Shown: positions 25,048-55,968 of the stretch, piece by piece
How the letters are laid out: every line of letters starts with the position of its first letter
Numbering within the stretch: the first letter of the stretch is position 1
Sequence record: MN850590.1
Origin: Escherichia phage moha
DNA length: 64,000 nt
Reading direction: 5' to 3' (one strand)
Notes under the pieces: generated by a model
What the model was told of the DNA's origin: nothing
What the model saw: only the letters and a program-made list of their open reading frames with translations
The model's database searches: none
Position numbers and translations under genes: made by a program

Positions 25048-25074
25048 AGACCTATCAACTACTGGAGGTAAAAC

Positions 25075-25602: not shown

Positions 25603-25664
25603 ACGCTTTACCCAAGGACGGGTTATAATGGTTCTGAGTTCCAATTCAATCTGAGGAAATAGTT

Positions 25665-26636
25665 ATGAGTATTACATCTGATGCAGTAAAACATGAAATT
25701 GCCGGTTTATGTGCTTCACAGATTAAAGTATGGTTTGATGGACATAATGATCGACGTTCACTCAATTATGAGCAAATCGCTATTCAGGTTCACCAATTAC
25801 TGGTTAGTAAATTTGATTTCCACATGCCGTCTGAAATCTATACTAATCTGCCACGAGCAATCATTAAAGCATGTAAAGGCTACGGAAAATCAATGGCAGA
25901 TGGAATCTTCAACGCGTTGAATAAACTTAACGTTCTGTCGATGATTAACTCTAATAATATATTGCGTAATCTCGGACGTACCGATTTGTTTGGACGTGAA
26001 CAGGGTAAAATGCCTTTGAAACAGATTATTGCTCATCTTAACCAGAACCAAACACGTTTTCTGGCTGTAGCAGCTCGCTTACAGACTGGCTTAGACCGAC
26101 AGATGAACTTTAAAACTCATCCACGTTATTCAGGTTCATCTGAGTTCTTTAATTGTGAATTACAAAAAGTTGCTGGTAAAACGGTCTTAGTGGTTCGTGT
26201 AACGTTTGAAGGACGACGTCAAGGATATTTTGACTTAATCGGTTCTGGGCTTAAACACTGTGGATTTATTGACGAAGTTGATATCAAGCGTGACGGCATT
26301 GGATATCGTATTGGGTATGTTTGTACTCTTAAAGAAGAAGAAATTTCAGAACCAGTGCCACCTAAGGTTAAAGCTCCTAAAGAAGTTACATACGATATTA
26401 ACCGAGATGATGCTCTTCAAGGCCTTATTGATGAACTAAACGAGGAAGTTATTCCAGTACAGAAATTTGAATCAAAGCACGCTGAGCAAATCAAATACTT
26501 TGAAGCTTTGATTAACGAACTTAATGTAACTATTCAACAGACCGACGATGAAATCTCACGATTAGCAGGGATGAACGGTAAAAATAAAACAGAACGAGCT
26601 AATCTCATTCAAGTAGTAAAACTTCTTAAGGATTAA
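25665..26636 (+). CDS. hypothetical protein with C-terminal coiled coil (first of three similar-architecture genes)
   Basis: 323 aa. Confidence 0.85.
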   Translation: MSITSDAVKHEIAGLCASQIKVWFDGHNDRRSLNYEQIAIQVHQLLVSKFDFHMPSEIYTNLPRAIIKACKGYGKSMADGIFNALNKLNVLSMINSNNILRNLGRTDLFGREQGKMPLKQIIAHLNQNQTRFLAVAARLQTGLDRQMNFKTHPRYSGSSEFFNCELQKVAGKTVLVVRVTFEGRRQGYFDLIGSGLKHCGFIDEVDIKRDGIGYRIGYVCTLKEEEISEPVPPKVKAPKEVTYDINRDDALQGLIDELNEEVIPVQKFESKHAEQIKYFEALINELNVTIQQTDDEISRLAGMNGKNKTERANLIQVVKLLKD

Positions 26637-26638
26637 TA

Positions 26639-26839
26639 ATGGAAATTATTTGTTTTATTTTTGTATATATTGTGTTAGGGTTCATTATAGTAATGATTGG
26701 ACGAAACCACATGGAAATTAGTTCAGGCGGTGAAGCTGTATTTGCCACATTTATTTGGCCTATTCTTGCTTTATTTGGAATAGTTTGGATTGTATCCTGG
26801 CCTTTAGCTAAACTTTATGAAAAAATATTTAGACTATAA
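26639..26839 (+). CDS. small membrane protein
   Basis: 66 aa, two TM helices. Confidence 0.7.
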   Translation: MEIICFIFVYIVLGFIIVMIGRNHMEISSGGEAVFATFIWPILALFGIVWIVSWPLAKLYEKIFRL

Positions 26840-26858
26840 TACGAAAATTGGAACATGT

Positions 26859-26920
26859 AATGAATGCATTAAAATCATAAAACAGTTTACAACCAAGGAT
26901 GGTTGGAGTATAATAAATCT
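26859..26920 (+). repeat. direct repeat copy A (~62 bp), includes promoter
   Basis: near-identical to 27849-27910 (2 mismatches); begins with AATGAATGCATTAAAATCATAA, which in copy B is the 3' coding end of the upstream gene. Confidence 0.85.
26885..26914 (+). promoter_or_regulatory. early promoter
   Basis: -35 GTTTACA / 17 bp / -10 TATAAT. Confidence 0.6.
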
Positions 26921-26940
26921 TTCAACATGAGGAATACAAA

Positions 26941-27870
26941 ATGGCTTTTATTACACGCAAAGAACTTATCAAAGAATTTACTTCGTATAACGACAAAACC
27001 ACCTACCCTAAGCGTAAAGCTCGGACTCCTGCGCAGATTGAACAGATATGTGCGTACTACGGGATTAATTCTCGCAAATTCAGCGACTTTGAATGTGCTA
27101 CCAATGTGCCTGTTAAAGAGCTCACTAAAAATGGCGAGTTCGCTCGTGTTCTGGCTAAACAGAAACTTCGTAATTTTTGTATTGGCGGCGAAGGCCAATA
27201 TTTTGCTAAGCAGTTCCGAAATAACCTTAACAATCTGATGGCTATTGCTTCTCGTATTCGTTCGCAATCAGTTAACATGAAGCATCTGAAGTATACTTAC
27301 GATAAGTTAGAAATCATGGTTATCAGTGAGAACGAGTTCACTCTCACATATAAACCCGAGAACGATAACGTCGCTCGTGTATTCAACCAAGCGTTGGAAG
27401 TGTTAGGCGATAATATTCATCAGATTAAAGCAATTTATTCTCGTGAGCTTAATATTATCGACCCTGTCAAGAATAAGGGTCATATCGCTATTCAAGCTCG
27501 TGTATCTGTTGGTAAAAAAGTTCCTGCACCGTGGTGGCACAAAGACTCTGAGTATTACCAAAATCTTAAAAAGGAAAATGCAATGTTCGAAGGCAATATT
27601 ACAGCAACACCAGTCGGTAATGCAGAGGTTCTAAGCGCATATTCTACTGCTCCATCTATATACACTTCCGCGACGACTAAACTGGAAATCTCTAACAACC
27701 TTCTTCCAGCCGAAGATTACCATTACAACCAAATCAAGGTCACTGTGGACCAACTGTCTGTTGAACTTGACAAAGCACAAGCTAAGCTTCGTGATGCTCA
27801 AAGTGTTGTAACGAATCTCCAGTTGCAGTATTCTAAACTTTTTAACGCAATGAATGCATTAAAATCATAA
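26941..27870 (+). CDS. hypothetical protein with C-terminal coiled coil
   Basis: 309 aa. Confidence 0.85.
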   Translation: MAFITRKELIKEFTSYNDKTTYPKRKARTPAQIEQICAYYGINSRKFSDFECATNVPVKELTKNGEFARVLAKQKLRNFCIGGEGQYFAKQFRNNLNNLMAIASRIRSQSVNMKHLKYTYDKLEIMVISENEFTLTYKPENDNVARVFNQALEVLGDNIHQIKAIYSRELNIIDPVKNKGHIAIQARVSVGKKVPAPWWHKDSEYYQNLKKENAMFEGNITATPVGNAEVLSAYSTAPSIYTSATTKLEISNNLLPAEDYHYNQIKVTVDQLSVELDKAQAKLRDAQSVVTNLQLQYSKLFNAMNALKS

Positions 27871-27910
27871 AATAGTTTACAACCAAGGATGGTTGGAGTA
27901 TAATGAATCT
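27849..27910 (+). repeat. direct repeat copy B
   Basis: see copy A. Confidence 0.85.
27875..27904 (+). promoter_or_regulatory. early promoter
   Basis: -35 GTTTACA / 17 bp / -10 TATAAT. Confidence 0.6.
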
Positions 27911-27932
27911 ATCTTAACGAGAGGAAAATATT

Positions 27933-28883
27933 ATGACACGTTCACATTACATTGAATACTTTGCAGGTCTTATCGCTAACGTTCATGCCCAACGTGCTTC
28001 TGGTGCACTAGGATTTGATGTTCCACACCGAGATGTAGTAAGTGGTATTCTTCGCGATTTTGGTACATACATAGGCCAAGAAAATCATATCTGTAAAGAT
28101 ACTCAAAATGCGTATTCTCATTCGTTAGGGACGTTGCTTCAATGGTTCAAACGTTCTCGTTTATTATCTTCTACTGTAGCTCGCGATAACATTAAAAACT
28201 TTATGAAGCCGAGCTTTATTAAATCTGTGACATCTAAAACCGATTTGGTTGAATTCACTATTGTTAATGATGTTAAAAAGACTCATTTGGCTGATTGGTT
28301 ATCTACCATTCCTGAAACTAAATTTGCTGATAAATTTGCTTGTGAATTCAATAACCAAGTGAATATGCTTTTTAAACATTCTCGTAAATTATTCACAGGC
28401 GGCGATGATCGTACAAATAAAGTTCATGTTAAAGATTGGGTTACTGCAGTATTCAAACCAACCGGTAATGGTAACGCATCATTATCAATTGATATCCAGG
28501 TTCCTTATTACTACTCACGTAATCTCGGTACCATGAAAGCCGAAGAAATTAATAAGCGCAACAAAACCATTCGTTCGCTGTCTTATAAACTTCGCATGAT
28601 GTTAAGAATCATGGACGTGGTAGAAATGTATGATGAAACCGAAGATAATGGTTCAATGTTATACAGTTCTCGCATTCAAATTAAGTTGAAGAACCCTAAC
28701 GAGTATAAGCCTAAGCCTATTAAAGAGCCTAAAGCAGAAAAAGTTGATAACTTAAGAGAAGAACGCGAATATCTCAAATCTCGTCTGAAAGAAGTCGAAG
28801 CCCAGATTGCAGAACAAACTAAATCGTTAAAAGCTCTGAATGCGAAAGCGGATGGTTTACGAAATGCCATTGAGGTGTTATAA
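27933..28883 (+). CDS. hypothetical protein with C-terminal coiled coil
   Basis: 316 aa. Confidence 0.85.
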   Translation: MTRSHYIEYFAGLIANVHAQRASGALGFDVPHRDVVSGILRDFGTYIGQENHICKDTQNAYSHSLGTLLQWFKRSRLLSSTVARDNIKNFMKPSFIKSVTSKTDLVEFTIVNDVKKTHLADWLSTIPETKFADKFACEFNNQVNMLFKHSRKLFTGGDDRTNKVHVKDWVTAVFKPTGNGNASLSIDIQVPYYYSRNLGTMKAEEINKRNKTIRSLSYKLRMMLRIMDVVEMYDETEDNGSMLYSSRIQIKLKNPNEYKPKPIKEPKAEKVDNLREEREYLKSRLKEVEAQIAEQTKSLKALNAKADGLRNAIEVL

Positions 28884-29188
28884 TGAAACTACGTCTTTTA
28901 GAGGATATTGATATGAGCACTAATCATGGCTTGGTTAAGTTTATTGACGATAGTTCAAAGATTGAATTTGTTCAGCGAGATAAAATCCACGGTGAAGAAG
29001 AGTTCGTTCCTCCGGCATGGAACGAAATAATGAAAATGGTTGAACGACGTGAAAATGCTGCCAAATCGGCAGCAAAACATCCATGTCCGGAATGTGGAAC
29101 TATCCAAGTCCAACTGGTTAACTGGACCAGTGATAACTTGAAATTGAAATGCCGTAAATGCTTCCACAAATTTGAGAGAACATTATAA
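28883..29188 (+). CDS. zinc-ribbon protein
   Basis: 101 aa; CPECG...CRKC. Confidence 0.75.
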   Translation: MKLRLLEDIDMSTNHGLVKFIDDSSKIEFVQRDKIHGEEEFVPPAWNEIMKMVERRENAAKSAAKHPCPECGTIQVQLVNWTSDNLKLKCRKCFHKFERTL

Positions 29189-29601
29189 TGAGATATAGCC
29201 TTCGTTGTTTTATCGCAGCTTTAGTTTTTGCTATTATTCCATTCATTTGGAACAGCCAGAATACTTACATGGAAACTAAAGTAATTCCTGTGGAGGTAGT
29301 GGAATTAATCTCAGGTCAATCTACAGGAAAATATTCTAAATTAGAATTTATTGCAGTCTATAAAGATGAGCAAGGACGAGTTTTTGACAGGCGTGTATCG
29401 CCATCGTTTTATACGCTTCTGAATAAAGGTGATACGATAGCTATAGAAATTCGTGAGATGGATATCAAACAAACTACCAAAGATAACTTGATTTGGTTCT
29501 TTGGTACAGTGTTGTTGGTTTCTATCTGTATCACAGGTTTTATTACATGTATTGTATTTGGCATTGCATATTTAATTGATGAAAGGAAAAATAATGTTTA
29601 A
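29188..29601 (+). CDS. membrane protein
   Basis: 137 aa; N- and C-terminal TM helices. Confidence 0.75.
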   Translation: MRYSLRCFIAALVFAIIPFIWNSQNTYMETKVIPVEVVELISGQSTGKYSKLEFIAVYKDEQGRVFDRRVSPSFYTLLNKGDTIAIEIREMDIKQTTKDNLIWFFGTVLLVSICITGFITCIVFGIAYLIDERKNNV

Positions 29602-29857
29602 AGTGTACGGGTATGACTCTACTATTCATAAATGCATTTATTGTGATAATGCGAAACGATTGCTGACTGTTAAGAAACAACCATTCGAATTCATTAATGT
29701 TATGCCGGAAAAAGGTGTGTTCGATGATGAGAAAATTACTGAGCTTCTGGTTAAGCTTGGACGTGAATCACAAGTTGGATTGACTATGCCTCAGGTGTTT
29801 GCTCCTGACGGAAGTCACATTGGTGGATTTGACCAACTACGAGAATATTTTAAATGA
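29594..29857 (+). CDS. nrdC: thioredoxin/glutaredoxin NrdC
   Basis: 87 aa; MFKVYGYDS..HKCIYCDNAKRLL matches T4 NrdC. Confidence 0.9.
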   Translation: MFKVYGYDSTIHKCIYCDNAKRLLTVKKQPFEFINVMPEKGVFDDEKITELLVKLGRESQVGLTMPQVFAPDGSHIGGFDQLREYFK

Positions 29858-30150
29858 GTATTGATTTAACTTTCCCTGGCCCTTATGACCAGGGTGAATT
29901 AGAAGCTTTATTATATCAAGAAATGTGCTCTCGTGCCAAGAACGATATTCAGTATGCTATCGATAATCCATGGGGCGAATTTCGAGTAATGATGGGTAAT
30001 CGAATCATCGGTGTCCAATGGCGATTCGTTGGCCTTGAGCCTGAGGACTATGAAGAAAACGAGCACGGTGACTGGATTCCTGTTGGTGAATATCACTGGG
30101 AATACGGTGGTCCTGATTTTGAAGTCTCTTGTTCATGGGTAGAACAATAA
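29854..30150 (+). CDS. hypothetical protein
   Basis: 98 aa; ATGA overlap. Confidence 0.7.
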   Translation: MSIDLTFPGPYDQGELEALLYQEMCSRAKNDIQYAIDNPWGEFRVMMGNRIIGVQWRFVGLEPEDYEENEHGDWIPVGEYHWEYGGPDFEVSCSWVEQ

Positions 30151-30168
30151 CCTGCTAGAAAATTTTAA

Positions 30169-30525
30169 ATGACATATTCATTAAATCTTAAAGATTTCCA
30201 AGATGTATACGAAGTTTGTGCCAATGAACTTGGTCCTGATGCTCCAACTATTATTGAAGTTTTAAATGTGCTCCCTTCATCATTAGCTTACGAAGCCAAA
30301 TCATGGGGATGGAACGACACTGTCGTTCGTGATGACCTTTACGTCCTGATGAACGACATGATGGTTAAAAAGGCAGAACCGGTTGCACCAATGGTTACCA
30401 TTACCGTTGAAGAATATAATCGCCTGCAAGCCATTGAAGAGCTTCTGTGGAACATTGAATGTGACCTGCCGTCAGGGCTAGAATCCTGGATTGATTATGA
30501 AGAGCTCAATAAACTCCGGGGTTAA
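30169..30525 (+). CDS. hypothetical protein
   Basis: 118 aa. Confidence 0.7.
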   Translation: MTYSLNLKDFQDVYEVCANELGPDAPTIIEVLNVLPSSLAYEAKSWGWNDTVVRDDLYVLMNDMMVKKAEPVAPMVTITVEEYNRLQAIEELLWNIECDLPSGLESWIDYEELNKLRG

Positions 30526-30574
30526 GCCATGGTATTCGGCTCGATGGGAGACAGTCGAGCCAGACGTCGAAACA

Positions 30575-30604
30575 GTTTACAACGACGAAGAAACGTGTTA
30601 TGAT
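30575..30604 (+). promoter_or_regulatory. early promoter
   Basis: -35 GTTTACA / 17 bp / -10 TATGAT; preceded by hairpin GGCTCGA..TCGAGCC. Confidence 0.5.
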
Positions 30605-46666: not shown

Positions 46667-49378
46667 ATGAAAGAATTTTACTTAACGGTTGAACAGATTG
46701 GTGATTCAATTTTTGAACGTTACATCGATTCTAATGGCCGTGAACGTACTCGTGAAGTAGAATATAAACCATCACTGTTTGCTCATTGTCCAGAAAGTCA
46801 GGCTACGAAATATTTCGATATCTACGGTAAGCCGTGTACTCGTAAGTTGTTCGCCAATATGCGTGATGCCTCCCAATGGATTAAACGCATGGAAGATATC
46901 GGTCTTGAAGCATTAGGTATGGACGATTTCAAATTGGCGTATTTGTCTGACACTTATAACTATGAAATCAAATACGACCATACAAAAATTCGTGTGGCTA
47001 ACTTCGACATCGAAGTAACATCTCCAGATGGGTTCCCTGAGCCGTCACAAGCAAAACATCCGATTGATGCTATCACCCATTATGACTCAATTGACGACAG
47101 GTTCTACGTATTTGATCTATTGAATTCTCCATATGGTAATGTAGAAGAATGGTCTATTGAAATCGCTGCTAAGCTTCAAGAACAAGGCGGTGATGAAGTT
47201 CCATCCGAAATTATCGATAAAATCATTTATATGCCGTTCGATAACGAAAAAGAATTGTTGATGGAATATCTCAACTTCTGGCAACAGAAAACTCCTGTCA
47301 TTTTGACTGGATGGAACGTTGAGTCATTTGATATTCCATATGTGTATAACCGAATCAAGAATATTTTTGGCGAATCTACTGCGAAACGTTTATCACCACA
47401 TCGTAAAACTCGTGTTAAAGTTATCGAAAACATGTATGGTTCTCGTGAAATCATTACATTGTTCGGTATCTCTGTTCTTGATTACATTGACCTTTACAAA
47501 AAATTCTCTTTTACCAATCAACCGTCGTATTCTCTGGATTACATTTCAGAATTTGAATTGAACGTTGGTAAACTGAAATATGACGGCCCTATTTCTAAGC
47601 TTCGTGAAAGCAATCACCAACGATATATTTCTTATAACATTATCGACGTGTATCGTGTATTGCAAATTGATGCTAAGCGTCAGTTCATCAACTTGAGTTT
47701 GGACATGGGTTATTATGCTAAGATACAGATTCAATCTGTGTTTAGCCCAATTAAAACATGGGATGCTATTATTTTTAATAGCCTTAAAGAGCAGAACAAG
47801 GTGATTCCACAAGGTCGTTCTCACCCTGTTCAACCTTATCCTGGCGCTTTTGTTAAGGAACCTATTCCAAATCGATACAAATATGTAATGAGTTTCGACC
47901 TTACATCTCTGTATCCAAGTATTATTCGCCAAGTGAATATTAGCCCAGAAACAATAGCAGGAACGTTTAAAGTAGCTCCATTGCATGATTATATTAACGC
48001 AATCGCTGAACGTCCTTCTGATGTGTACAGTTGTTCTCCTAACGGCATGATGTATTATAAAGACCGTGACGGTGTTGTTCCAACTGAAATCACTAAGGTC
48101 TTTAATCAACGTAAAGAACATAAAGGTTATATGCTTGCGGCTCAACGTAATGGTGAAATAATTAAAGAGGCACTGCATAATCCTAATCTTTCTGTTGACG
48201 AACCATTAGATGTTGATTATCGTTTCGACTTCAGTGATGAGATTAAAGAAAAGATTAAAAAGTTGTCTGCTAAATCTCTTAATGAAATGTTGTTTAGAGC
48301 TCAACGTACTGAAGTTGCAGGTATGACTGCACAGATTAACCGTAAATTGCTTATCAACTCACTTTATGGTGCACTTGGCAACGTTTGGTTCCGTTATTAT
48401 GATTTGCGTAATGCTACTGCAATCACAACATTCGGTCAAATGGCTTTACAGTGGATTGAACGTAAAGTTAATGAATATCTGAATGAAGTTTGTGGTACAG
48501 AAGGTGAAGCTTTCGTTCTTTATGGTGATACAGACTCTATTTACGTATCTGCTGATAAAATTATCGATAAGGTTGGTGAATCTAAATTCCGTGATACCAA
48601 CCATTGGGTAGACTTCTTAGATAAGTTCGCACGTGAACGTATGGAACCGGCTATTGATAGAGGTTTCCGTGAAATGTGTGAATACATGAACAATAAACAA
48701 CACTTAATGTTCATGGACCGAGAAGCTATCGCTGGTCCTCCGCTCGGTTCTAAAGGTATTGGTGGATTCTGGACTGGTAAGAAACGTTATGCATTAAACG
48801 TTTGGGATATGGAAGGTACTCGTTACGCTGAGCCTAAACTCAAAATCATGGGTCTAGAGACTCAGAAATCTTCGACTCCTAAAGCAGTACAGAAAGCTCT
48901 TAAAGAATGTATTCGTCGTATGCTTCAAGAAGGTGAAGAATCATTACAAGAATATTTTAAAGAGTTTGAAAAAGAATTCCGTCAATTGAATTATATTAGC
49001 ATCGCGTCGGTATCTTCTGCGAATAACATTGCTAAATATGACGTTGGTGGATTCCCTGGTCCTAAATGTCCGTTCCATATTCGTGGAATTCTGACGTATA
49101 ACCGGGCTATCAAAGGTAATATTGATGCTCCACAAGTTGTAGAAGGTGAAAAAGTATATGTTCTGCCTTTACGTGAAGGAAACCCATTCGGTGATAAATG
49201 TATCGCATGGCCTTCTGGTACTGAAATCACAGATTTAATTAAAGACGACGTACTTCATTGGATGGACTACACTGTTCTCCTTGAGAAGACATTTATTAAA
49301 CCACTTGAAGGATTCACATCAGCAGCGAAACTCGATTACGAGAAGAAAGCATCTCTGTTCGATATGTTCGATTTTTGA
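46667..49378 (+). CDS. 43: DNA polymerase gp43 (family B)
   Basis: 903 aa; exo motif FDIEV, pol motifs SLYPSI and YGDTDS; N-terminus matches RB69 gp43 as recalled. Confidence 0.97.
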   Translation: MKEFYLTVEQIGDSIFERYIDSNGRERTREVEYKPSLFAHCPESQATKYFDIYGKPCTRKLFANMRDASQWIKRMEDIGLEALGMDDFKLAYLSDTYNYEIKYDHTKIRVANFDIEVTSPDGFPEPSQAKHPIDAITHYDSIDDRFYVFDLLNSPYGNVEEWSIEIAAKLQEQGGDEVPSEIIDKIIYMPFDNEKELLMEYLNFWQQKTPVILTGWNVESFDIPYVYNRIKNIFGESTAKRLSPHRKTRVKVIENMYGSREIITLFGISVLDYIDLYKKFSFTNQPSYSLDYISEFELNVGKLKYDGPISKLRESNHQRYISYNIIDVYRVLQIDAKRQFINLSLDMGYYAKIQIQSVFSPIKTWDAIIFNSLKEQNKVIPQGRSHPVQPYPGAFVKEPIPNRYKYVMSFDLTSLYPSIIRQVNISPETIAGTFKVAPLHDYINAIAERPSDVYSCSPNGMMYYKDRDGVVPTEITKVFNQRKEHKGYMLAAQRNGEIIKEALHNPNLSVDEPLDVDYRFDFSDEIKEKIKKLSAKSLNEMLFRAQRTEVAGMTAQINRKLLINSLYGALGNVWFRYYDLRNATAITTFGQMALQWIERKVNEYLNEVCGTEGEAFVLYGDTDSIYVSADKIIDKVGESKFRDTNHWVDFLDKFARERMEPAIDRGFREMCEYMNNKQHLMFMDREAIAGPPLGSKGIGGFWTGKKRYALNVWDMEGTRYAEPKLKIMGLETQKSSTPKAVQKALKECIRRMLQEGEESLQEYFKEFEKEFRQLNYISIASVSSANNIAKYDVGGFPGPKCPFHIRGILTYNRAIKGNIDAPQVVEGEKVYVLPLREGNPFGDKCIAWPSGTEITDLIKDDVLHWMDYTVLLEKTFIKPLEGFTSAAKLDYEKKASLFDMFDF

Positions 49379-49418: not shown

Positions 49419-50054
49419 ATGAAAACTACTCCTATTACTATCGCTATTGACGCAATCGTAAAACAAGCTTCTTCTTTGGCTACTATGGCCAAAGTAATTA
49501 GTCAAAACCCTGCTCGTTATAATGCTATTCTAGAAACTCTTCGACGCCCAGGACTTAGCAATTATGAAAGCCGAGTAATTATTACAGGTGTTGGTAAGAA
49601 TGCTAATATTGCAACTAAAGCTTCTGAGACATTTGCTTCACTCGGTATCCCAAGTATGTACTTGAACACCGGGCATTATTCTCACGGTGATGCAGGATTC
49701 ATTGCGCCTAATGATGTGTTGATTCATATTAGTCGTTCTGGTAAGACCGAAGAAATGATAGGTGTTGCTAAACATCTTCGTATGATTCGTCCGAACGTCA
49801 AACAGATTCTGTTGCATTGTAACCCAGACATTCCACAAGAAAATGAAGCCCTTTTTGATTACTCTTTCTGTACAGGCATCGCAGTAGAGGTTGACGAGAA
49901 CTCTTTAGCTCCGACTATGTCTACTACATTGTTGTTAGCGCTTATCGATACGTTTGCTATCAACCTTTCGTCTGAGCGTGGATTTACCTCTAATGACTTC
50001 CTTAAGTTCCACCCTGGTGGTGCACTAGGTGCCATGTTACGAGGCGAACAATGA
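49419..50054 (+). CDS. SIS-domain sugar-phosphate isomerase (KdsD/GutQ arabinose-5-phosphate isomerase-like)
   Basis: 211 aa; GVGKNANIATK...HGDAGF...ISRSGKTEE aligns with KdsD SIS core GMGKSGHIG..HGDLGM..ISNSGES. Confidence 0.8.
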   Translation: MKTTPITIAIDAIVKQASSLATMAKVISQNPARYNAILETLRRPGLSNYESRVIITGVGKNANIATKASETFASLGIPSMYLNTGHYSHGDAGFIAPNDVLIHISRSGKTEEMIGVAKHLRMIRPNVKQILLHCNPDIPQENEALFDYSFCTGIAVEVDENSLAPTMSTTLLLALIDTFAINLSSERGFTSNDFLKFHPGGALGAMLRGEQ

Positions 50055-50194
50055 AAGCAATAACAATAGGACTTTTACTATTGATGCTTGTCATGACTAT
50101 CTACTGGAGCTTAACAGCTCCAGTAATGATTCCAACACTTGTAATTGGATGGATTATGATTGGACTACAAGCAAAGTATGAATGCTTTAACTAG
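50051..50194 (+). CDS. possible 47-aa membrane peptide (not in ORF track)
   Basis: ATGA overlap with SIS gene stop; hydrophobic with IGWIMIG; sits where T4 imm lies. Confidence 0.4.
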   Translation: MKAITIGLLLLMLVMTIYWSLTAPVMIPTLVIGWIMIGLQAKYECFN

Positions 50195-50235
50195 AATAGT
50201 GTACAATACTCCTACTTACCAATGAGGACTTCAAC

Positions 50236-51921
50236 ATGAAAAAAGCTGTTATTCTTGGTGCTGGATTGGCAACTCGTTTATATCCAATAACGCATCATAT
50301 TCCTAAGGTGCTTGTTAACTATAAACAAGACACTATTCTGAGCAATTTGTATACAATTTATTCTGACCTTGGCGCAGATGAAATTATTGTAGTAGTTCAT
50401 TCAAAATTTGCTGAAACTGTTCGAGCTTATTGTGAGCAAGAAGGGTTCAATGTGACTATTCGTACAGTTGATGAAGCGTATGGATCTGCTTATGCTCTTG
50501 CTAAATTACACAAAGATTTAGACGGCCATAATGTAATTGTTAACTGGTGTGATATTATTCCTGATTTTGGTTCATGGTCTTGGAATGTTAACGCAATCTA
50601 TGTTAAAGGTGACGAATGTCGATATAATTTCGACGGTGAAAATATCACTAACGTAGGTTCAACAGGTGGTAATGTTGTAGGAATTTATCAGTTCAAAGAC
50701 TGGGAATTCTATATGGGTTCTACTGATGAAGAAATTCATGAATACTGCAAAGGACGTGATTTCGTAGAATTCCTTTACGCCAGCGCATTCAATAAATCAG
50801 AGCTTATGAATCTAATTGATTTAGGTGATATGCCTAAACTTGAAAAGGCTCATGAAGTTCGTGAACTTAATCGTAGTTTTAATGCAGTTGAAATTGGTGA
50901 AGAAACTGTAACTAAATTCGCATTGACCGAACAGGGTCGAGCTCTTCAGAAAGATGAGATTTCATGGTATCTTAAAGTGAAATCGGATTCAGTTCCTCAG
51001 TTAGTTTCTGTTAATGAAAATAACTTTGAAATGGAACGCATTAAAGGTAAGCCGGCATTTGAATATATTAAATCCAAATCAAGTCTTGCTCGTCCACAAA
51101 TTGTTGATGCAATTTTAGATGCACTGAAATTCAGCACAGACACTTATTTTGTAAGTCCTGAAACTGTTCGTCGTGATTTCACTAAAGAATTCTATACGAA
51201 AGTTATTGATCGTTGTGAAAGCATTCAACCATTGATTGATTCATTTGGTAAAATCACGCATGTGAACTACACTAAGATTGGACGTCTGAAGCCAATGCTG
51301 AAACAAGCTTTAGAACACCTTATTCGTTATCATAACCGTTCTCAGGGGCAGTACTCTGTTATTCACGGTGACCCGAACTTCAGTAATACTATGATTACTG
51401 ATAACGGCGAAGTCAAGTTTATCGACCCTCGTGGATATTTTGGCGAAACCAAGATTTACGGGCCAAAATTGTATGATGAAGCTAAAGTGCTTTATGCTGT
51501 TTCAGGTTATGATGAATTCAATGCTAATCCGACCTGGGGACAGTTTACTATTGATGAAACAACTTGTAATGTGACTATTAACATCAATCCATTAGTTTAC
51601 AAATATGGAAAGATGAGTTCGTTTAACGAGTATCATCATTTGGCAGTGGCAATTATCTGGATTGCATTAGGTGGTTATTTCAAGAATAATCCACTTAAAG
51701 CGGTAGCCGCATATTATAAAGGTATGGAACTTCTGACTAAGCAATTACGTAACATGGGCCGTGTACTTCAGGACGGCTCTATTAGTTATGACGTAGCAGA
51801 ACCTGTAACGGCTACTCTGATTACAAAAAATCCTGGTAAATGGGTACTAACTGATAAAGAAACTGGTGTTTCCTATCGTCCAATCGGTGGCGATATCACT
51901 CATCAATGGGAACGAATCTAA
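50236..51921 (+). CDS. bifunctional sugar-1-phosphate nucleotidyltransferase / APH-choline-kinase-like sugar kinase
   Basis: 561 aa; N-terminal ILGAGLATRL nucleotidyltransferase loop; C-terminal HGDPNFSN...FIDPRGYFG kinase catalytic/Mg motifs. Confidence 0.85.
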   Translation: MKKAVILGAGLATRLYPITHHIPKVLVNYKQDTILSNLYTIYSDLGADEIIVVVHSKFAETVRAYCEQEGFNVTIRTVDEAYGSAYALAKLHKDLDGHNVIVNWCDIIPDFGSWSWNVNAIYVKGDECRYNFDGENITNVGSTGGNVVGIYQFKDWEFYMGSTDEEIHEYCKGRDFVEFLYASAFNKSELMNLIDLGDMPKLEKAHEVRELNRSFNAVEIGEETVTKFALTEQGRALQKDEISWYLKVKSDSVPQLVSVNENNFEMERIKGKPAFEYIKSKSSLARPQIVDAILDALKFSTDTYFVSPETVRRDFTKEFYTKVIDRCESIQPLIDSFGKITHVNYTKIGRLKPMLKQALEHLIRYHNRSQGQYSVIHGDPNFSNTMITDNGEVKFIDPRGYFGETKIYGPKLYDEAKVLYAVSGYDEFNANPTWGQFTIDETTCNVTININPLVYKYGKMSSFNEYHHLAVAIIWIALGGYFKNNPLKAVAAYYKGMELLTKQLRNMGRVLQDGSISYDVAEPVTATLITKNPGKWVLTDKETGVSYRPIGGDITHQWERI

Positions 51922-52307
51922 TGCCCCGTGTAGAAAACATGCTTAATCTTTGTTTTGATGTCGATGATTGCATCACGGAATGGAATAACAATCGTGATTA
52001 CGTGAACTTCAAACCAGACGTCGAAATGGTGTCTGCCATTAATGCCCTGTATGATGCAGGGCATACCATAACGCTTTACACTGCTCGTGGTATGAAGTCA
52101 GTAGGTCCTGGTCGTATAGCAATTGACATTCTCCCAAGTCTGATTCAGAACTTGGAAAACATTGGTTTGAAGTACCATAATTTGCTAACACATAAACCAG
52201 TATATGATTGGATTATCGACGACAAAGCTATGCGTCCTGATGAATTCAAAGCTCTTATGAATAAAGGCGAATTCGAAACATTTAAATCATATAAACCAAA
52301 TCTATAA
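51921..52307 (+). CDS. HAD-superfamily phosphatase
   Basis: 128 aa from ATG 51921 (TAATG overlap); motif I FDVDDCIT, later TARG and IIDDK. Confidence 0.75.
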   Translation: MPRVENMLNLCFDVDDCITEWNNNRDYVNFKPDVEMVSAINALYDAGHTITLYTARGMKSVGPGRIAIDILPSLIQNLENIGLKYHNLLTHKPVYDWIIDDKAMRPDEFKALMNKGEFETFKSYKPNL

Positions 52308-52364
52308 TAATTTAAGTAAGACCTGCAAAAACCATCGCATCAATTAACGTGAGATGCAAAAAAA

Positions 52365-53525
52365 ATGAATACTTTTAAAATCGGAACGAATTTTGATTTA
52401 GCTCTTCTTGATAAAATCGTAGAGCTCAATAAAACCTATCCTAATAGCTTGATAAACGAAGTATATGGCTCTACAAGAGAAATGGCTTTTGTAGCAGCCA
52501 GACCTGATTTTAGGCTTCCTGACGTTGACAAAAAGATGTTAGAAGACTACGTTAAACGTTGTAACGAATTAGGTATTTGCTTTAACTATACACTCAACAC
52601 GATAAATCCTGGTTCAAAAAGAGAACTAGTTGAGTGGAAGAAGAAAGCTATTCAGGATTATGTTCAGTATCTTTGGTCAATAGGCGTATGGCGTATTACT
52701 ATCGCTAACCCTGTTGTTATGGAAATTGTTCGTGAAGTCAATAAAGATATTGAGATTGAAGTTTCAACAATTCTACATGTCGATGCTGTAACTCAAATAA
52801 AATACTTGCATGACCAATATAACATCAAAAAGGTCTGTTGCGGAATTCATAAGAACCGTTCAGTTTCTTTCCTGAAGCGTGCAGCAGAGTTTTGCAATAA
52901 GAACAATATAATATTTGAAGTTCTTGTAAATGAGTTCTGTTCTAATGCTGGTAAAGGGTATACAACACATTGTAGCTATCGTGACTCTTGCTATATTTTC
53001 CATAGTACTGATGTTACCGCTGATGATGCTAAATCCTTAAATGGATATCCAATGCAACACTGCATTAAAGCTCGTGATACAGACCCATTTAACTGGCTGA
53101 GAACTCGTTTTGTTCGTCCTCAAGATTTGAAACTTTATAATGATATTGGTATCACTCAATTCAAAGTTTCAGGACGTACAGGTAGCACAGACTACATTTT
53201 GAAAGTTCTTGAAGCATACGCTTCTGAAAAGTTTGAAGGTAATTTGTTAGAACTGTGGAAGCCTTTAGAGACTATTTTCACTCTTGAAAACGAAACTGAG
53301 TTTTCACATACAGTAAATATTGAAACCTCTTTGTTAGATGGCTTTTTAGAAAAAAGGTGGTTCAGACATCCAGATTTCGATTGTGCTAATGAAATCTGCG
53401 GGACGACGTGTACATATTGTGAAAGATATTATAAACGTCAATTATCTAAAAACGGGTTAGCAGAAAACTCTATATCTATTATTGATATAACTAACTCTGA
53501 TGACGCTTTGAGGTACCCGGAATGA
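52365..53525 (+). CDS. hypothetical protein with C-terminal Cys cluster
   Basis: 386 aa; CANEICGTTCTYC (C-x3-C-x3-C-x2-C) near C-terminus; no confident fold. Confidence 0.85.
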   Translation: MNTFKIGTNFDLALLDKIVELNKTYPNSLINEVYGSTREMAFVAARPDFRLPDVDKKMLEDYVKRCNELGICFNYTLNTINPGSKRELVEWKKKAIQDYVQYLWSIGVWRITIANPVVMEIVREVNKDIEIEVSTILHVDAVTQIKYLHDQYNIKKVCCGIHKNRSVSFLKRAAEFCNKNNIIFEVLVNEFCSNAGKGYTTHCSYRDSCYIFHSTDVTADDAKSLNGYPMQHCIKARDTDPFNWLRTRFVRPQDLKLYNDIGITQFKVSGRTGSTDYILKVLEAYASEKFEGNLLELWKPLETIFTLENETEFSHTVNIETSLLDGFLEKRWFRHPDFDCANEICGTTCTYCERYYKRQLSKNGLAENSISIIDITNSDDALRYPE

Positions 53526-53761
53526 TTTCTAGAAAAACTTTTAACCACCAACTTAATGAAGAGATTTTGACTATGAAACTGAACACTAATGAACAAATTC
53601 TTAAAAAGGCCCTGATGGGCCTTTTTGAAACTAAAGCGGCTAAAGTGATTAAAGAACCTGTTCAATTAGAATACTACGCTGATGCATTTCTTCATAGTGT
53701 TCTTGGAAGTATCGATGCCGAAGCTTTACGTTATATCAATATTGCCAAGAAATTCAAATAA
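53522..53761 (+). CDS. hypothetical small protein (doubtful)
   Basis: 79 aa; contains terminator-like hairpin GGCCC-tgat-GGGCC TTTTT at 53606-53624. Confidence 0.45.
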   Translation: MISRKTFNHQLNEEILTMKLNTNEQILKKALMGLFETKAAKVIKEPVQLEYYADAFLHSVLGSIDAEALRYINIAKKFK

Positions 53762-53784
53762 GCTTTACGAATTGAGTATATAAT
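53762..53784 (+). promoter_or_regulatory. possible middle promoter
   Basis: GCTTTA box, 11 bp, TATAAT; the box motif is duplicated 40 bp upstream. Confidence 0.4.
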
Positions 53785-53802
53785 AATTGTATTGAGGTAA
53801 AC

Positions 53803-54519
53803 ATGGGAAAACATAACACAATGAAATATATCAAAGCCGCAGATTTTCAAACCGCATTTAAAGCAGTCAATCGTGAAATTTTAGAAAACCCGGAATTCGT
53901 AACTGATTCTCGTATTGGACGTTGTAATGAAATTGGGTCTATGACAGTAGTTGTTGACACTCCATCATCATTCAAAATGACCGACCCACGTATTAACCGC
54001 ATCTCTTATGAATATGCCGAAGACTTCTGGAAGTTTATGATTTCTGGTGGTACCAACGCAGAAGAAGCGTTTAAGGCATATCCTAATGTCGCTAAATTTA
54101 TTTCTAAACCAAAATCAGATGTTTTGCCGGCGAACTTCAACACTTTCTATGGTCCTCGCATTGCGGCTCAATTACCAGCTCTTCTAAAAGAACTTAAAGA
54201 GAAGCCTAACTCTCGAAGAGTTGTGTTCCAAATTCTAGAAAGTTCTGATCAGGCTTTGCTTGATTCGGACGAAACGCTTGAATATCCATGTACTGACTCA
54301 GTGACTTATTATATTCGTGATGGTAAGCTTTATACCCACTGTCATATGCGTTCTCAGAACTGTGCTGTTGTTATGCAGTTGGATTTTTATCTCCAAGGAA
54401 AATTACTTCATTATATCGCTAACGAATGTGGTGTAGAAGTTGGTGATTATACTCATACCATGGTAAGTGCCCATGTGTTTGAACGTGATTTTGATTATGT
54501 TAAAGGATTCCTTGACTAA
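53803..54519 (+). CDS. 42: thymidylate-synthase-fold pyrimidine hydroxymethylase (gp42-like dCMP hydroxymethylase, divergent)
   Basis: 238 aa; NSRR...YPCTDSVTYYIRD...MRSQN pattern parallels T4 gp42 DSRR...MCTNTVQYLIRD...MRSND. Confidence 0.7.
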   Translation: MGKHNTMKYIKAADFQTAFKAVNREILENPEFVTDSRIGRCNEIGSMTVVVDTPSSFKMTDPRINRISYEYAEDFWKFMISGGTNAEEAFKAYPNVAKFISKPKSDVLPANFNTFYGPRIAAQLPALLKELKEKPNSRRVVFQILESSDQALLDSDETLEYPCTDSVTYYIRDGKLYTHCHMRSQNCAVVMQLDFYLQGKLLHYIANECGVEVGDYTHTMVSAHVFERDFDYVKGFLD

Positions 54520-55418
54520 TGGCTATTTTCCGCGTACCTATCTTGAGTATGCGGTCTTATGAAACTGGACAGTATGCTATCCTTAAGGATGGCAACTTCC
54601 AACTTCATTTGCACCGTGCTAATCCAGGTGATGTGATTACATATCCACGTAATGCATCTGATATTAAAGAATGTGAACGTCTTTTCCCAGAATTTAAGTT
54701 TGTTCCATTATGGTATAAAGATAACGCGTATAACACTCGTAAATATTTCTGGTCTGAAAATGAATTTGTGGTTGATTCATTAATTGCTTATTATGATTGT
54801 GATTTTCTAATCACAGATATCACTGGATATGATGGTGCTTTTGATGTAGAATTCAATTTCAATATCACTGCAGACCCTAATAAACCACGTTTTTATATTG
54901 ACGAATTCTTAAAAACTGATATGTTGTCGGTTAATCGTTCACTTCAAACTACTGTGTTGAATGAACGTCAAAAAGAAGTGCTGGTTAACGCAGGTGCAAA
55001 TGGTAATAAGATTATCGTAACGCAGAAAGTTATACGTCCTTCCATCATGCAGCGTCTTGTAGGTGATTTGGCTCCTATTCATCTAGATGGTATTTTTCAT
55101 CCATTTCGAATTAGTGACCCATGCTATCGTTTTGAACAAGTGGTTGAATGTGCAATTCAATTAGGTCAACCGCTTTATATAACCGATCCAAATAATAGCT
55201 TCGACAGAAATAAGTATCCTGAAGAAGCGTTGATTCGAATTTTTAAACCAACTAAAACTGAGTACTATCAAATTCTTAAAGGACGTCCGAAGATTCAATA
55301 TTTCGAAAATCCTGAAGAAGTATTCCATCCAGGTCTTGGTGAGTTCATCTACTTTAATGCTTTAATTTCTTCGCCGTATAATATACCTAAATACGAAGAT
55401 GTCGTAATCGAGGAATAA
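54519..55418 (+). CDS. hypothetical protein at beta-glucosyltransferase position (candidate transferase)
   Basis: 299 aa; TAATG overlap with upstream gene; no motif recognised. Confidence 0.8.
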   Translation: MAIFRVPILSMRSYETGQYAILKDGNFQLHLHRANPGDVITYPRNASDIKECERLFPEFKFVPLWYKDNAYNTRKYFWSENEFVVDSLIAYYDCDFLITDITGYDGAFDVEFNFNITADPNKPRFYIDEFLKTDMLSVNRSLQTTVLNERQKEVLVNAGANGNKIIVTQKVIRPSIMQRLVGDLAPIHLDGIFHPFRISDPCYRFEQVVECAIQLGQPLYITDPNNSFDRNKYPEEALIRIFKPTKTEYYQILKGRPKIQYFENPEEVFHPGLGEFIYFNALISSPYNIPKYEDVVIEE

Positions 55419-55419
55419 A

Positions 55420-55968
55420 ATGGCTAAAATTATTTTAGTAGACGGCCCAGATAATGCTGGTAAAACAACTTTCATTAATGACATAATGGAAATTAGTGAA
55501 AGATATGTAAAGATTGATTTCCCTAAACGAACAGTTGATGGACGTTTCGATGTTAAGTCTCGAAATGAAGTTGGCTGTTTCGAAACGATGTTGAATTATT
55601 TAGACCCTACTAAGATTTATCTGTTAGACCGTGGATATATTAGTAACTGGGTTTATGGACGTATTCGACAAGATGCGGACTCGGTTCTTGATGTTTATGA
55701 ACAGGATTATGTTCGTCTTTGCCAAAACCATGATGTGTTCACAATTATTTTAACACGTAACGAAATGACTGAAAGTTTTGAAGACGACCTTATTACTTTG
55801 TCTTCATTCGGTTTTAATACAGTCATTTCACATTTTGAAGAGTTTGCAATTCATAACAAAATCCAAACGTATCAATTACTTAATCATGATGGTGCTAACA
55901 AAGTTATAGGATTTAATGCAAGCGAACGTAATGATTTGATTACAGAAATCATCAAATGGGCTCGTTAA
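55420..55968 (+). CDS. P-loop kinase (nucleoside/nucleotide kinase-like)
   Basis: 182 aa; Walker A VDGPDNAGKTT; LLDRGY motif. Confidence 0.8.
   Translation: MAKIILVDGPDNAGKTTFINDIMEISERYVKIDFPKRTVDGRFDVKSRNEVGCFETMLNYLDPTKIYLLDRGYISNWVYGRIRQDADSVLDVYEQDYVRLCQNHDVFTIILTRNEMTESFEDDLITLSSFGFNTVISHFEEFAIHNKIQTYQLLNHDGANKVIGFNASERNDLITEIIKWAR

Follow-up and report, generated by a model that had tools for sequence, protein, structure and literature searches.

We analyzed a 64,000-nucleotide stretch of Escherichia phage moha (MN850590.1), here called the window, which is of Mosigvirus type and of ordinary base composition (GC, 0.34 to 0.41). Between gp43 (46667 to 49378) and uvsX (56067 to 57239), the ORF listing gave nine plus-strand ORFs, from 49419 to 55968, exactly reproducing the coordinates of the original prediction for this DNA. 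That prediction had set the interval against imm, 42 and beta-gt of T4, a layout confirmed by the T4 gene order (43, imm.1, imm, 42, b-gt, segA, uvsX). The nine ORFs are closely spaced, with overlapping stop and start codons at several junctions. They form a 6.55-kb block that is about 98% identical across about 150 Mosigvirus genomes and that shares 97.7% DNA identity with positions 24047 to 30598 of RB69, in full synteny from gp55 to gp45.

The cluster has already been characterised in RB69-type phages: as the cytosine arabinosylation cluster gp45-gp55 of RB69 (Thomas et al. 2018, PMC6024577; Lee et al., NAR 2026, PMC13326640) and also as the Afh genes of HY126 (He et al. 2026) and in Serratia LC53/92A1 (Mahler et al. 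2025). In these RB69-type phages, cytosine is replaced by arabinose-decorated 5-hydroxycytosine, the arabinose being ether-linked to C5 of cytosine, as reported by NMR for RB69. Positions 49419 to 55968 of moha, a phage known here from its genes alone, very probably constitute the Mosigvirus (RB69-type) arabinosyl-5-hydroxycytosine cluster. The RB69 gp45-gp55, HY126 and LC53 clusters are gene for gene the same as that of moha, and the sole meaningful difference is that genes 46:47 and 52:53, which sequencing errors split in the RB69 GenBank record, are intact in moha.

Synthesis of the sugar donor

The first ORF (49419 to 50054, 211 aa) encodes the ortholog of RB69 gp55, a predicted SIS-only D-arabinose-5-phosphate isomerase. 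It matched Pfam SIS (41 bits), NCBIfam KpsF/GutQ (5e-32) and KdsD (2e-30) and PHROG 5670. Both NCBIfam scores lie under the equivalog cutoffs because the moha protein is a SIS domain alone, lacking the CBS pair of KdsD. The predicted function of this isomerase is the conversion of ribulose-5-P to arabinose-5-P (PMC13326640), the reaction that it would also carry out in moha. It is followed by the ortholog of RB69 gp54 (50051 to 50194), a hydrophobic 47-aa peptide with two TM segments that had no family match beyond PHROG 3610 (unknown function). This peptide has counterparts in Serratia phage LC53 (59.6% identity) and in JS98 (orf44).

The next ORF (50236 to 51921) encodes a 561-aa AfhE-type bifunctional nucleotidyltransferase/kinase, corresponding to RB69 gp53:52; its single intact frame agrees with the RB69 correction in Thomas 2018 (PMC6024577). 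Residues 3 to 99 matched Pfam NTP_transferase (39 bits), with further matches to NCBIfam sugar-1-P nucleotidyltransferases and to PDB 1JYK (2e-5), while weak matches to kinase families fell at residues 344 to 409 and the kinase part carries an HGD379-x4-N384 motif. The 133-aa product of the fourth ORF (51906 to 52307) is a HAD-family phosphatase of the AfhF type, corresponding to RB69 gp51 (PHROG 1238). It matched the NCBIfam capsule biosynthesis phosphatase TIGR01689 (1.9e-13) and has FDVDDCIT as motif I, with D18-x-D20. The SIS, nucleotidyltransferase/kinase and HAD folds, for which the original prediction had asked for profile and structure searches, were thus upheld by Pfam and NCBIfam.

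The activated D-arabinose donor that had been proposed to arise from ribulose-5-P agrees with PMC13326640. The proposed order of steps, modeled on KdsC and AmgK, had to be reversed. PMC13326640 credits He et al. with showing that HY126 AfhE converts Ara5P to Ara-1,5-P2, AfhF then converts Ara-1,5-P2 to Ara-1-P, and AfhE also joins Ara-1-P and UTP into UDP-Araf. By homology with HY126, the C-terminal APH-like kinase of the moha 561-aa protein would add the 1-phosphate to Ara5P, the HAD enzyme would remove the 5-phosphate from Ara-1,5-P2, and the N-terminal nucleotidyltransferase would make UDP-arabinofuranose from Ara-1-P and UTP. Since phosphorylation at C1 precedes 5-dephosphorylation, the sugar would be held in the furanose form. 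Like KdsD/KdsC and AmgK/MurU, the pathway would open with a KdsD-like SIS reaction and close with a nucleotidyltransferase resembling MurU/RmlA. However, whereas AmgK/MurU salvage begins with a free sugar followed by the anomeric kinase, the moha kinase would use a 5-phosphorylated sugar, with the phosphatase second.

Base hydroxylation and transfer

The ortholog of RB69 gp48 (53803 to 54519, 238 aa) matched Pfam Thymidylat_synt and aligned with PDB 9IQC/9IR2 over 238/238 residues (536 bits, about 97% identity). It retains Cys146 and carries D169N, N177D and L143E. D169N is the signature of 5hodCMP synthases and separates the moha enzyme from T4 gp42. RB69 gp48 makes 5-hydroxy-dCMP with O2 and a bound flavin, and label from 18O2 is incorporated (PMC13326640). 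Judged by its sequence, the moha enzyme is a flavin/O2-dependent dCMP 5-hydroxylase and not a hydroxymethylase; of the original assignment, the thymidylate synthase (TS) fold stood and the hydroxymethylase activity did not. The base is therefore predicted to be 5-hydroxycytosine, with the sugar ether-linked.

An alternative is that this enzyme makes hmdCMP as in T4, that isomerase, phosphatase, anomeric kinase and nucleotidyltransferase act in turn, and that the DNA contains arabinosyl-hydroxymethylcytosine, the base named in the original prediction. In favor of this idea are the TS fold and a position syntenic with T4 gene 42; ara-hmC was indeed what was reported in 2018 (PMC6024577), and phosphatase-first wording still stands in Table 1 of PMC13326640. 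We give it almost no weight. The D169N signature is unlike T4 gp42, the order of the HY126 reactions runs against a phosphatase-first scheme, and the 2018 assignment is now held to be erroneous (PMC13390438); the alternative has already been refuted by LC-MS, NMR and labelling data published for RB69.

With the 5-hydroxylase assignment, the comparison with T4 gene 42 and beta-gt is one of shared position and logic: in both phages, C5-oxygenated dCMP comes from a TS-fold enzyme ahead of replication and is decorated afterwards by a glycosyltransferase (GT). T4 gp42, however, is folate dependent, adds CH2OH and keeps D169, and T4 draws on host UDP-glucose, whereas moha would make its own UDP-arabinofuranose and have the sugar ether-linked directly to C5. 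As for the RB69 ortholog, the TS-fold enzyme would hydroxylate dCMP at C5, and the resulting 5hodCMP would be phosphorylated, incorporated by gp43 and then glycosylated.

The 299-aa product of the eighth ORF (54519 to 55418), the ortholog of RB69 gp47:46, is the predicted GT-B DNA arabinosyltransferase 1. It had no sequence-family match in Pfam or NCBIfam and only PHROG 3891; a GT-B fold is given for RB69 gp47:46 (PMC13326640 Table 1). The ORF is whole in moha and frameshifted in the RB69 record. This putative GT would place the first alpha-Araf on 5hoC, and a second GT, encoded outside the window, would add the next arabinose. The last ORF (55420 to 55968, 182 aa), the ortholog of RB69 gp45, encodes a P-loop TMK-like nucleotide kinase, as originally proposed. 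It matched PHROG 761, thymidylate kinase (1.6e-45), and weakly TIGR00041, and it has a G9-x4-GKT P-loop; RB69 gp45 is listed as a "nucleotide kinase" (PMC13326640). The original view of a self-contained module did not hold in full, since the second arabinosyltransferase (RB69 gp3), a dCTPase and a dNMP kinase are encoded elsewhere (PMC13326640).

A U32 family protein and its gene neighborhoods

The fifth gene of the published cluster (52365 to 53525, RB69 gp50) is strongly conserved. Its 386-aa product had been described as Cys-rich, which it is, with no function offered; Pfam placed it in Peptidase_U32 (42 bits). In the available portions of the published accounts, we found no discussion of it beyond its label in Table 1 of PMC13326640, "sugar or heterocycle reductase." It is the most conserved protein of the cluster, with 79 to 87% identity between genera. 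The AF2 model (pLDDT, 87.9) is a TIM barrel whose top PDB fold match is 5D88. Among the E. coli paralogs, hhalign gave RlhA, the 5-hydroxycytidine synthase, as the best match (probability, 82.5%), with weak alignments to UbiU, TrhP and UbiV. E190, C203 and C209, invariant in the phage subfamily, correspond to the essential E161, C169 and C176 of RlhA.

The phage proteins thus share the Peptidase_U32 motif, the TIM barrel, the essential Glu and two Cys, and further conserved Cys with RlhA (23S rRNA ho5C2501), TrhP (tRNA ho5U34) and UbiU/UbiV (ubiquinone). They differ in forming a separate, phage-encoded subfamily of about 360 to 390 aa with no UbiT-like partner and, in the Pfam search, no DUF3656, which RlhA has. 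Their presumed substrate, a deoxynucleotide or DNA, differs as well. The third and fourth Fe-S ligands had no aligned counterpart in RlhA, TrhP or UbiU, and an invariant four-Cys block (CX4CX3CX2C) lies at the C terminus.

Phage and cellular U32 proteins also share a genomic tie to prephenate supply. At all five loci inspected, from five lineages, an AroQ chorismate mutase (CM) scoring over the Pfam gathering score either separated U32 from the TS-fold gene or adjoined U32. An overlap of the CM with the U32 stop codon was seen at four of the loci; one is Thanatos-1, whose cluster is rearranged but still has the CM next to U32. By tblastn, a U32-associated CM was found in 51 related phage records. 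No CM is present in the moha window. The slot is occupied by a 79-aa ORF (53522 to 53761) that is joined to U32 by an ATGA stop/start overlap and whose 32 homologs are all from Mosigvirus; moha/Entb_45 DNA homology breaks off exactly over it. Its product had no Pfam, NCBIfam or PDB match and no similarity to the Entb_45 CM, and the AF2 model has three helices (pLDDT, 63). We rejected it as an AroQ CM (hhalign probability against the CM profile, 0.2%).

Downstream of U32 in unrelated metagenomic phages come a DAHP synthase gene (at locus L005) and a gene for a DAHP synthase-CM fusion (at L026). Ten metagenomic U32 loci were examined over 4 to 10 kb on each side of U32. Eight had gp45-like kinases, which thus accompany both TS-type and U32-type clusters, and gp46:47-like GTs were found in seven (six strong matches, one weak). 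None had a TS-fold gene within that span, though one could sit elsewhere, and SIS, AfhE and HAD genes were missing from nine. Both in Straboviridae and in DnaE-type phages unrelated to them, U32 travels with GT, TMK-like kinase, dCMP deaminase, dUTPase and UDG genes. Conversely, U32 is missing from Acinetobacter phage Maestro and coliphage JS98, which do have TS, GT and kinase genes. This either/or/both distribution of U32 and the TS-fold gene is, at the level of gene content, the pattern of isofunctional enzymes.

A possible second route to 5-hydroxycytosine

From these comparisons we infer that the U32 protein, a predicted Fe-S protein, may hydroxylate cytosine at C5 in a reaction that needs prephenate but no O2, giving the phage a second route to 5-hydroxycytosine. 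UbiU/V are established to draw their O from prephenate, which RlhA also requires; the phage protein would likewise take its oxygen from prephenate, with dCMP, dUMP, DNA or something else as the candidate substrate. An O2-dependent partner with the same proposed product lies beside it, as in TrhO/TrhP and UbiI,H,F/UbiU,V. Related genera would supply prephenate through the adjacent CM, and the Mosigviruses, having lost it, would depend on host PheA/TyrA.

The published label suggests instead that U32 serves the sugar branch, for example by tailoring arabinose or its nucleotide carrier. The U32 gene is set within the sugar/base cluster, with the HAD phosphatase gene before it and the TS-fold gene after it, the TIM barrel of its product is common to many sugar-acting enzymes, and in L005 an AfhE homolog lies on one side of it and an epimerase-like gene on the other. 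We nevertheless consider this role unlikely: UDP-Araf synthesis is complete without U32, Acinetobacter and JS98-type clusters run the same pathway without it, the sugar genes are absent from nine of the ten metagenomic U32 loci over the span inspected, its CM and DAHP synthase partners provide prephenate rather than a sugar, and reductase activity is not known for any U32 protein. A take-over or auxiliary metabolic function on a host target, as an RlhA/TrhP-like rRNA or tRNA hydroxylase, a UbiU/V-like quinone hydroxylase or a true peptidase, seems similarly doubtful. RNA or quinones are the substrates of every U32 hydroxylase characterised so far, RlhA is the best hhalign match and collagenase activity has been reported for some U32 proteins, but DUF3656 is missing, and U32 travels with DNA-modification genes in two unrelated phage groups and stands in for the TS-fold gene in the metagenomic clusters, over the span inspected.

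It is also conceivable, though barely so, that the CM feeds Cx-SAM (CmoA-type) carboxymethylation and adjoins U32 by coincidence, as a phage CmoA turns prephenate into Cx-SAM for 5-carboxymethylcytosine in DNA (PMC12783734). However, the annotations of the inspected clusters include no CmoA, CmoB or CmoX-like gene, and only arabinosylated 5hoC is reported for these phages. The stop-codon overlaps, the adjacency that survives rearrangement, and the DAHP synthase and DAHP synthase-CM genes flanking U32 in unrelated phages likewise speak against coincidence.

Several observations count against the prephenate-dependent hydroxylase itself: the third and fourth Fe-S ligands do not match those of the cellular proteins, the hhalign alignments to UbiU, TrhP and UbiV are weak, the moha window has no CM, and the published label names a reductase. 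JS98-type coliphages, moreover, share the facultatively anaerobic host yet lack U32, and therefore the link with host aerobiosis is imperfect. The TS-fold route requires O2 (PMC13326640). If the proposal is true, U32 would allow 5hoC synthesis to go on in an anoxic gut.

The gp43-uvsX interval

Between gp43 (46667-49378) and uvsX (56067-57239), we found all nine plus-strand ORFs of the original prediction, exactly where it had placed them (49419-55968), and the T4 gene order with which it had compared them (43, imm.1, imm, 42, b-gt, segA, uvsX) was also correct. The ORFs are closely spaced, several of them with stop/start codon overlaps such as the ATGA joining the 386-aa and 79-aa ORFs, and the base composition of the block is unremarkable. 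About 150 Mosigvirus genomes match the block at about 98% identity, and over its full length it shares 97.7% identity with RB69 24047-30598, the opposite-strand stretch RB69p055 to RB69p045. In the RB69 record (NC_004928; our locus L001, 2598-3498 and 6095-7781), 046/047 and 052/053 are each split, which we attribute to single-base sequencing errors; both are intact in the window (299 and 561 aa). Elsewhere in the window, 3' of the replication genes, lie Spackle (61066-61359; PF25676) and AdfA, anti-DarT factor A (61352-62011; PF23813, 397 bits), a known counter-defence gene. ORFs of 124, 105 and 164 aa in the gp41-to-primase interval (59114-59488, 59544-59861 and 62203-62697) had no Pfam match.

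Thomas et al. 2018 (PMC6024577) reported that RB69 DNA contains arabinose, singled out the same gp43-uvsX module, corrected the 53/52 frameshift and suggested a UDP-arabinose role for the enzymes ORF055c and ORF53_52c. Lee et al. 2026 (PMC13326640) described the gp45-gp55 region as the arabinosylation cluster and, by LC-MS and NMR, found 5-hydroxycytosine (5hoC) ether-linked to alpha-Araf and to beta-Araf-(1-3)-alpha-Araf. According to a 2026 AEM paper (PMC13390438), the original assignment of arabinosyl-hmC was erroneous. The replacement of C in virion DNA by mono- and di-arabinosyl-5hoC was established by LC-MS and NMR on RB69 and Mosigvirus NP, genomes other than that of the window (PMC13326640, PMC13390438). 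We assign the interval to this known arabinosyl-5hoC cluster with high confidence.

Searches against the Pfam, NCBIfam and PHROG families mostly upheld the predicted folds. Together with catalytic motifs read in the sequence, they revealed a full sugar-activation set: a SIS isomerase, the nucleotidyltransferase/kinase AfhE and the HAD protein AfhF (gene names of phage HY126), orthologs of RB69 gp55, gp53:52 and gp51, respectively. The 211-aa isomerase is related to KpsF/GutQ/KdsD (NCBIfam, 5e-32 and 2e-30) but has the SIS domain only. Its residues 48-207 align with KdsD 47-202 of 328, and because it has no tandem CBS pair it falls under the NCBIfam equivalog cut-offs (106 bits versus 505). Being the SIS catalytic domain alone, it is therefore likely to be KdsD-like in action and not a full-length KdsD/GutQ member. 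In the 561-aa protein, a sugar-1-phosphate nucleotidyltransferase domain at the N terminus is joined to an APH/choline-kinase-like C-terminal region that bears H377-G-D379-x4-N384 and D397. The 133-aa protein, which contains a DxD motif, matches TIGR01689, the HAD family named 'capsule biosynthesis phosphatase'. These matches and the published RB69 and HY126 work bear out the enzyme classes and the arabinose donor that had been predicted. The prediction had the kinase and phosphatase in the wrong order: for the HY126 homologs, in the account of He et al. 2026 cited in PMC13326640, AfhE first makes Ara-1,5-P2 from Ara5P, AfhF then takes off the 5-phosphate, and AfhE finally makes UDP-Ara.

The 299-, 79- and 47-aa proteins matched solely PHROGs of unknown function, and the 182-aa protein is a P-loop TMK-like kinase. 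The 299-aa protein is the intact ortholog of RB69 gp47:46, adjoins the thymidylate-synthase (TS)-fold gene and is recognized by no sequence family; the GT-B fold of the presumed RB69 arabinosyltransferase is taken from Table 1 of PMC13326640. The 47-aa ORF (50051-50194), between the isomerase and nucleotidyltransferase/kinase genes, encodes a two-TM peptide with counterparts in JS98 (orf44) and, at 59.6% identity, in Serratia phage LC53. The peptide is retained within the sugar-activation operon across genera, and the papers on the cluster that we consulted do not mention it.

The 238-aa protein has a TS fold and shares about 97% identity with PDB 9IQC/9IR2 across its full 238 residues (536 bits). 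Its alignment with ThyA and T4 gp42 revealed D169N (E. coli ThyA numbering), N177D and L143E, with Cys146 kept (motifs MRSQN...QLD and LEYPC), and the same signature was found in every other arabinosyl-5hoC phage enzyme of the alignment. T4 gp42 and ThyA have Asp at ThyA position 169, whereas the window enzyme has Asn, which sets it apart from T4-type dCMP hydroxymethylases and their folate-dependent CH2 transfer. RB69 gp48 turns dCMP into 5hodCMP, takes 18O from 18O2 and binds flavin (PMC13326640). The base chemistry is hydroxylation, as D169N and the work on gp48 indicate, and not the hydroxymethylation originally proposed. Nor is the module fully self-contained, as had been proposed, since a second arabinosyltransferase (RB69 gp3), a dCTPase and a dNMP kinase are all encoded elsewhere.

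The module is real as an observation, partly right as originally interpreted, and already known; it is the textbook alternative to T4 glucosyl-hmC and, having been published, gains nothing from being found again. The remaining interest lies in the U32-family gene, the 79-aa and 47-aa ORFs and the TMK-like kinase.

The U32-family protein

The 386-aa Cys-rich protein, encoded on the plus strand at 52365-53525, is the ortholog of RB69 gp50 and belongs to Peptidase_U32 (PF01136, 42.2 bits versus a Pfam cut-off of 22.4). In PMC13326640, gp50 has a table entry, 'sugar or heterocycle reductase', and no discussion; the Discussion of that paper presents the pathways of RlhA and TrhP as other, unrelated ways of hydroxylating pyrimidines and leaves the family member in the cluster itself unremarked. 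RlhA (23S rRNA 5-hydroxycytidine), TrhP (tRNA ho5U) and UbiU/V are Fe-S proteins for O2-independent hydroxylation that require prephenate, the proven O donor for ubiquinone hydroxylation (PMC5727448, PMC10990095).

A PDB sequence search with the phage U32 protein found nothing. Its AlphaFold2 model (pLDDT 87.9, pTM 0.88) had as its best PDB fold match 5D88, the only solved U32 protein (E 2.5e-7, TM 0.69), the others being generic TIM barrels. For the subfamily, 1.84 billion representatives yielded 1185 relatives at E <=1e-3, 114 of them at <=1e-30. Ten cysteines are invariant in a 25-member alignment (C158, C177, C192, C203, C209, C233 and a CX4CX3CX2C block at 340-352), as is E190. When the U32 profile was compared with the four E. 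coli paralogs, RlhA was the best match (probability 82.5%, E 1e-5, 203 columns), and the matches to UbiU, TrhP and UbiV were weak.

The residues E161, C169 and C176, essential in RlhA (PMC5727448), align with the invariant E190, C203 and C209 of the phage protein. The family cysteines lie at about C169, C176, C193, and C197 or C232; the first two align in phage U32, but the third and fourth do not. Either C192 and C233, both invariant, or cysteines of the 340-352 block are candidates for the third and fourth [4Fe-4S] ligands. RlhA also requires its C-terminal Cys residues (PMC5727448), and phage U32 has a C-terminal four-Cys block of its own. RlhA, at 653 aa, carries DUF3656 C-terminal to the U32 motif, whereas the phage protein has PF01136 alone and no DUF3656.

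Across genera, U32 has the highest identity in the cluster (79-87%, versus 68-82% for the TS-fold protein, 44-71% for AfhE and 38-72% for the kinase), and it is better conserved than UvsX in two of the four phages in which both were compared (LC53 and Rgz1). Homology and gene neighborhood make an O2-independent, prephenate-dependent dCMP C5 hydroxylase the best-supported function for U32, and we would give this proposal about an even chance of being correct. The substrate might instead be dUMP or DNA cytosine.

Chorismate mutase in the slot after U32

In Enterobacter phage Entb_45, the slot directly after U32 holds an AroQ chorismate mutase (CM) gene (Pfam CM_2, 40.9 bits versus a cut-off of 27), which is identical to the window's 79-aa ORF in length and in its 4-nt (ATGA) overlap with the U32 stop. 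Prephenate is the product of chorismate mutase. The slot lies at 53522-53761 in the window and, in five loci of related phages with CM, at 5658-5897 (L009), 4983-5240 (L010), 4884-5228 (L011), 4986-5231 (L012) and 4854-5231 (L013). Using tblastn, we found CM in at least 51 phage records spanning about a dozen host genera: phages of Klebsiella, Serratia (including LC53 and 92A1), Yersinia, Enterobacter, Edwardsiella, Erwinia, Pectobacterium, Kosakonia, Providencia and Morganella, coliphage EcS1 and Shewanella phage Thanatos. All five examined (Entb_45, Thanatos, LC53, P545 and Rgz1) passed the Pfam CM threshold, and their invariant residues (R8, R25, K36, E49, S71 and Q75) appear to be spaced like the catalytic residues of E. 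coli CM. The Thanatos-1 cluster is rearranged, with U32 after the kinase gene and not ahead of the TS-fold gene; U32 and CM still adjoin and overlap there. That the CM serves a CmoA-type pathway (PMC12783734) is disfavored by this gene neighborhood.

The 79-aa ORF had no match to the CM_2 or NCBIfam CM models even at E 10. We considered whether it is a diverged or frame-shifted CM and rejected this, as BLASTP found nothing and a profile-profile comparison with the phage CM gave a probability of 0.2%. DNA homology between the window and Entb_45 ends at the 3' end of U32 and restarts at the start of the TS-fold gene, and a search of all frames of the 64-kb window found no CM-like sequence (best E 0.17). 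With no CM in the window, Mosigviruses would depend on host PheA/TyrA for prephenate. The 79-aa ORF is confined to Mosigviruses, some of which carry truncated versions of 47-58 aa (proteins P0291-P0301), and its AlphaFold2 model (pLDDT 63) was too poor for a fold search.

U32 and its partners in cultured and uncultured phages

AfhE-type proteins were present in 373 phage records, 57 of them from Acinetobacter phages, and U32 in 221, all from phages of Enterobacterales or Shewanella. Both were present in 153/153 Mosigvirus-level records, and U32 was found in none of the 57 Acinetobacter phage records carrying AfhE. Direct inspection of the clusters of Acinetobacter phage Maestro and coliphage JS98 showed AfhE, HAD, TS-fold, GT and kinase genes in both, SIS in Maestro only, and neither U32 nor CM in either. 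U32 is an optional cassette, missing in phages of a strict aerobe and dispensable in one coliphage lineage too. A strict correlation of U32 with host anaerobiosis was rejected as partial only: U32 is missing from Acinetobacter phages but also from JS98-type coliphages.

U32 proteins 48-58% identical to that of the window occur in uncultured phages with DnaE-type polymerases. We took ten such metagenomic loci, 4-10 kb on each side of U32, and searched all six-frame ORFs at maximum sensitivity with profile HMMs built from six Straboviridae genera. Within these distances, the TS-fold hydroxylase was found in 0/10 loci. The gp45-like kinase was present in eight of the ten, and the gp46:47-like GT gave six strong matches (E 1e-17 to 6e-29) and one weak one. 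Five of the six strong GT matches lie directly upstream of U32; the sixth, in L005, lies about 2 kb upstream, with a SIS gene and a full-length AfhE homolog (29% identity, 2e-50) in between. The idea that unannotated U32 neighbors are cryptic TS-fold proteins was rejected, those of about 300-340 aa being gp46:47-like GTs; further unannotated neighbors are proteins of 248 and 254 aa (downstream in L014 and L002) and 265 aa (L003).

Directly downstream of U32, L005 encodes a DAHP synthase (9145-9891) and L026 a DAHP synthase-CM fusion (11219-12316), both shikimate-pathway enzymes borne by DnaE-type phages. A KDO8P synthase identity for the L005 gene, a DAHP_synth_1 match, would have pointed to arabinose-5-P; it was rejected because DAHP synthase models score higher (237 bits versus 63).

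Several other genes were seen at these loci. A radical SAM/SPASM protein recurs a few genes from U32 (L003 12160-14360, L002 1-249, L018 7980-9011 and L024 7972-9000), and L003 has a second, very diverged U32-like gene beside a nucleoside deoxyribosyltransferase-like gene. L025 (8850-11816) has ThyX, a long dCMP-deaminase fusion and an OGG_N protein near U32. In L016 (7777-16179), U32 is accompanied by two GTs, one Gly_transf_sug and the other TAGT-like, together with a dUTPase/DCD and a UDP-galactopyranose mutase; the set recalls phage RL38J1 with its galactofuranosyl-5hoC, except that no TS-fold gene is present at the locus.

The GT and kinase accompany the TS-fold protein, U32 or both, as would be expected if these two enzymes did the same job. 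A supply of prephenate is likewise suggested by the neighborhood, with CM beside U32 in the 51 phage records and a DAHP synthase or its CM fusion next to metagenomic U32. These neighborhood data disfavor both the published designation of U32 as a sugar or heterocycle reductase and its action on a host target as a hydroxylase or peptidase. As a prephenate-dependent hydroxylase, U32 would complement the O2- and flavin-dependent TS-fold enzyme with an O2-independent route to 5hoC, a pairing that would mirror TrhP/TrhO and UbiU/V versus UbiI/H/F. In many uncultured phages, U32 would act with the GT and kinase, sometimes with the phage's own CM or DAHP synthase, as the sole hydroxylase. A full-text literature search found no paper tying phage U32 or CM to 5hoC; He et al. 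2026 and Mahler et al. 2025, which lay outside its reach, may address it.

The sole demonstrated route to 5hoC needs O2, whereas these phages prey on enteric bacteria in the anoxic gut. A prephenate-dependent U32 hydroxylase, if confirmed, would resolve this conflict and would account for the presence of CM in related phages and for the cluster's most conserved gene being a 'peptidase'. Enzymologists could also gain from it a U32 enzyme that is small and soluble and whose substrate is the size of a mononucleotide; as of a 2024 PNAS paper, no U32 hydroxylase had been reconstituted in vitro. Judging from homology and gene context, the arguments seem to us evenly balanced on whether U32 is the first prephenate-dependent hydroxylase to be viral and the first to act on deoxynucleotides or DNA, providing a parallel O2-independent route to 5hoC and, as the sole hydroxylase in many uncultured phages, defining a second widespread class of 5-hydroxy-pyrimidine hypermodification. 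This uncultured phage family probably carries glycosylated 5-hydroxypyrimidines made without a TS-fold enzyme, and searches based on the D169N signature would miss such phages.
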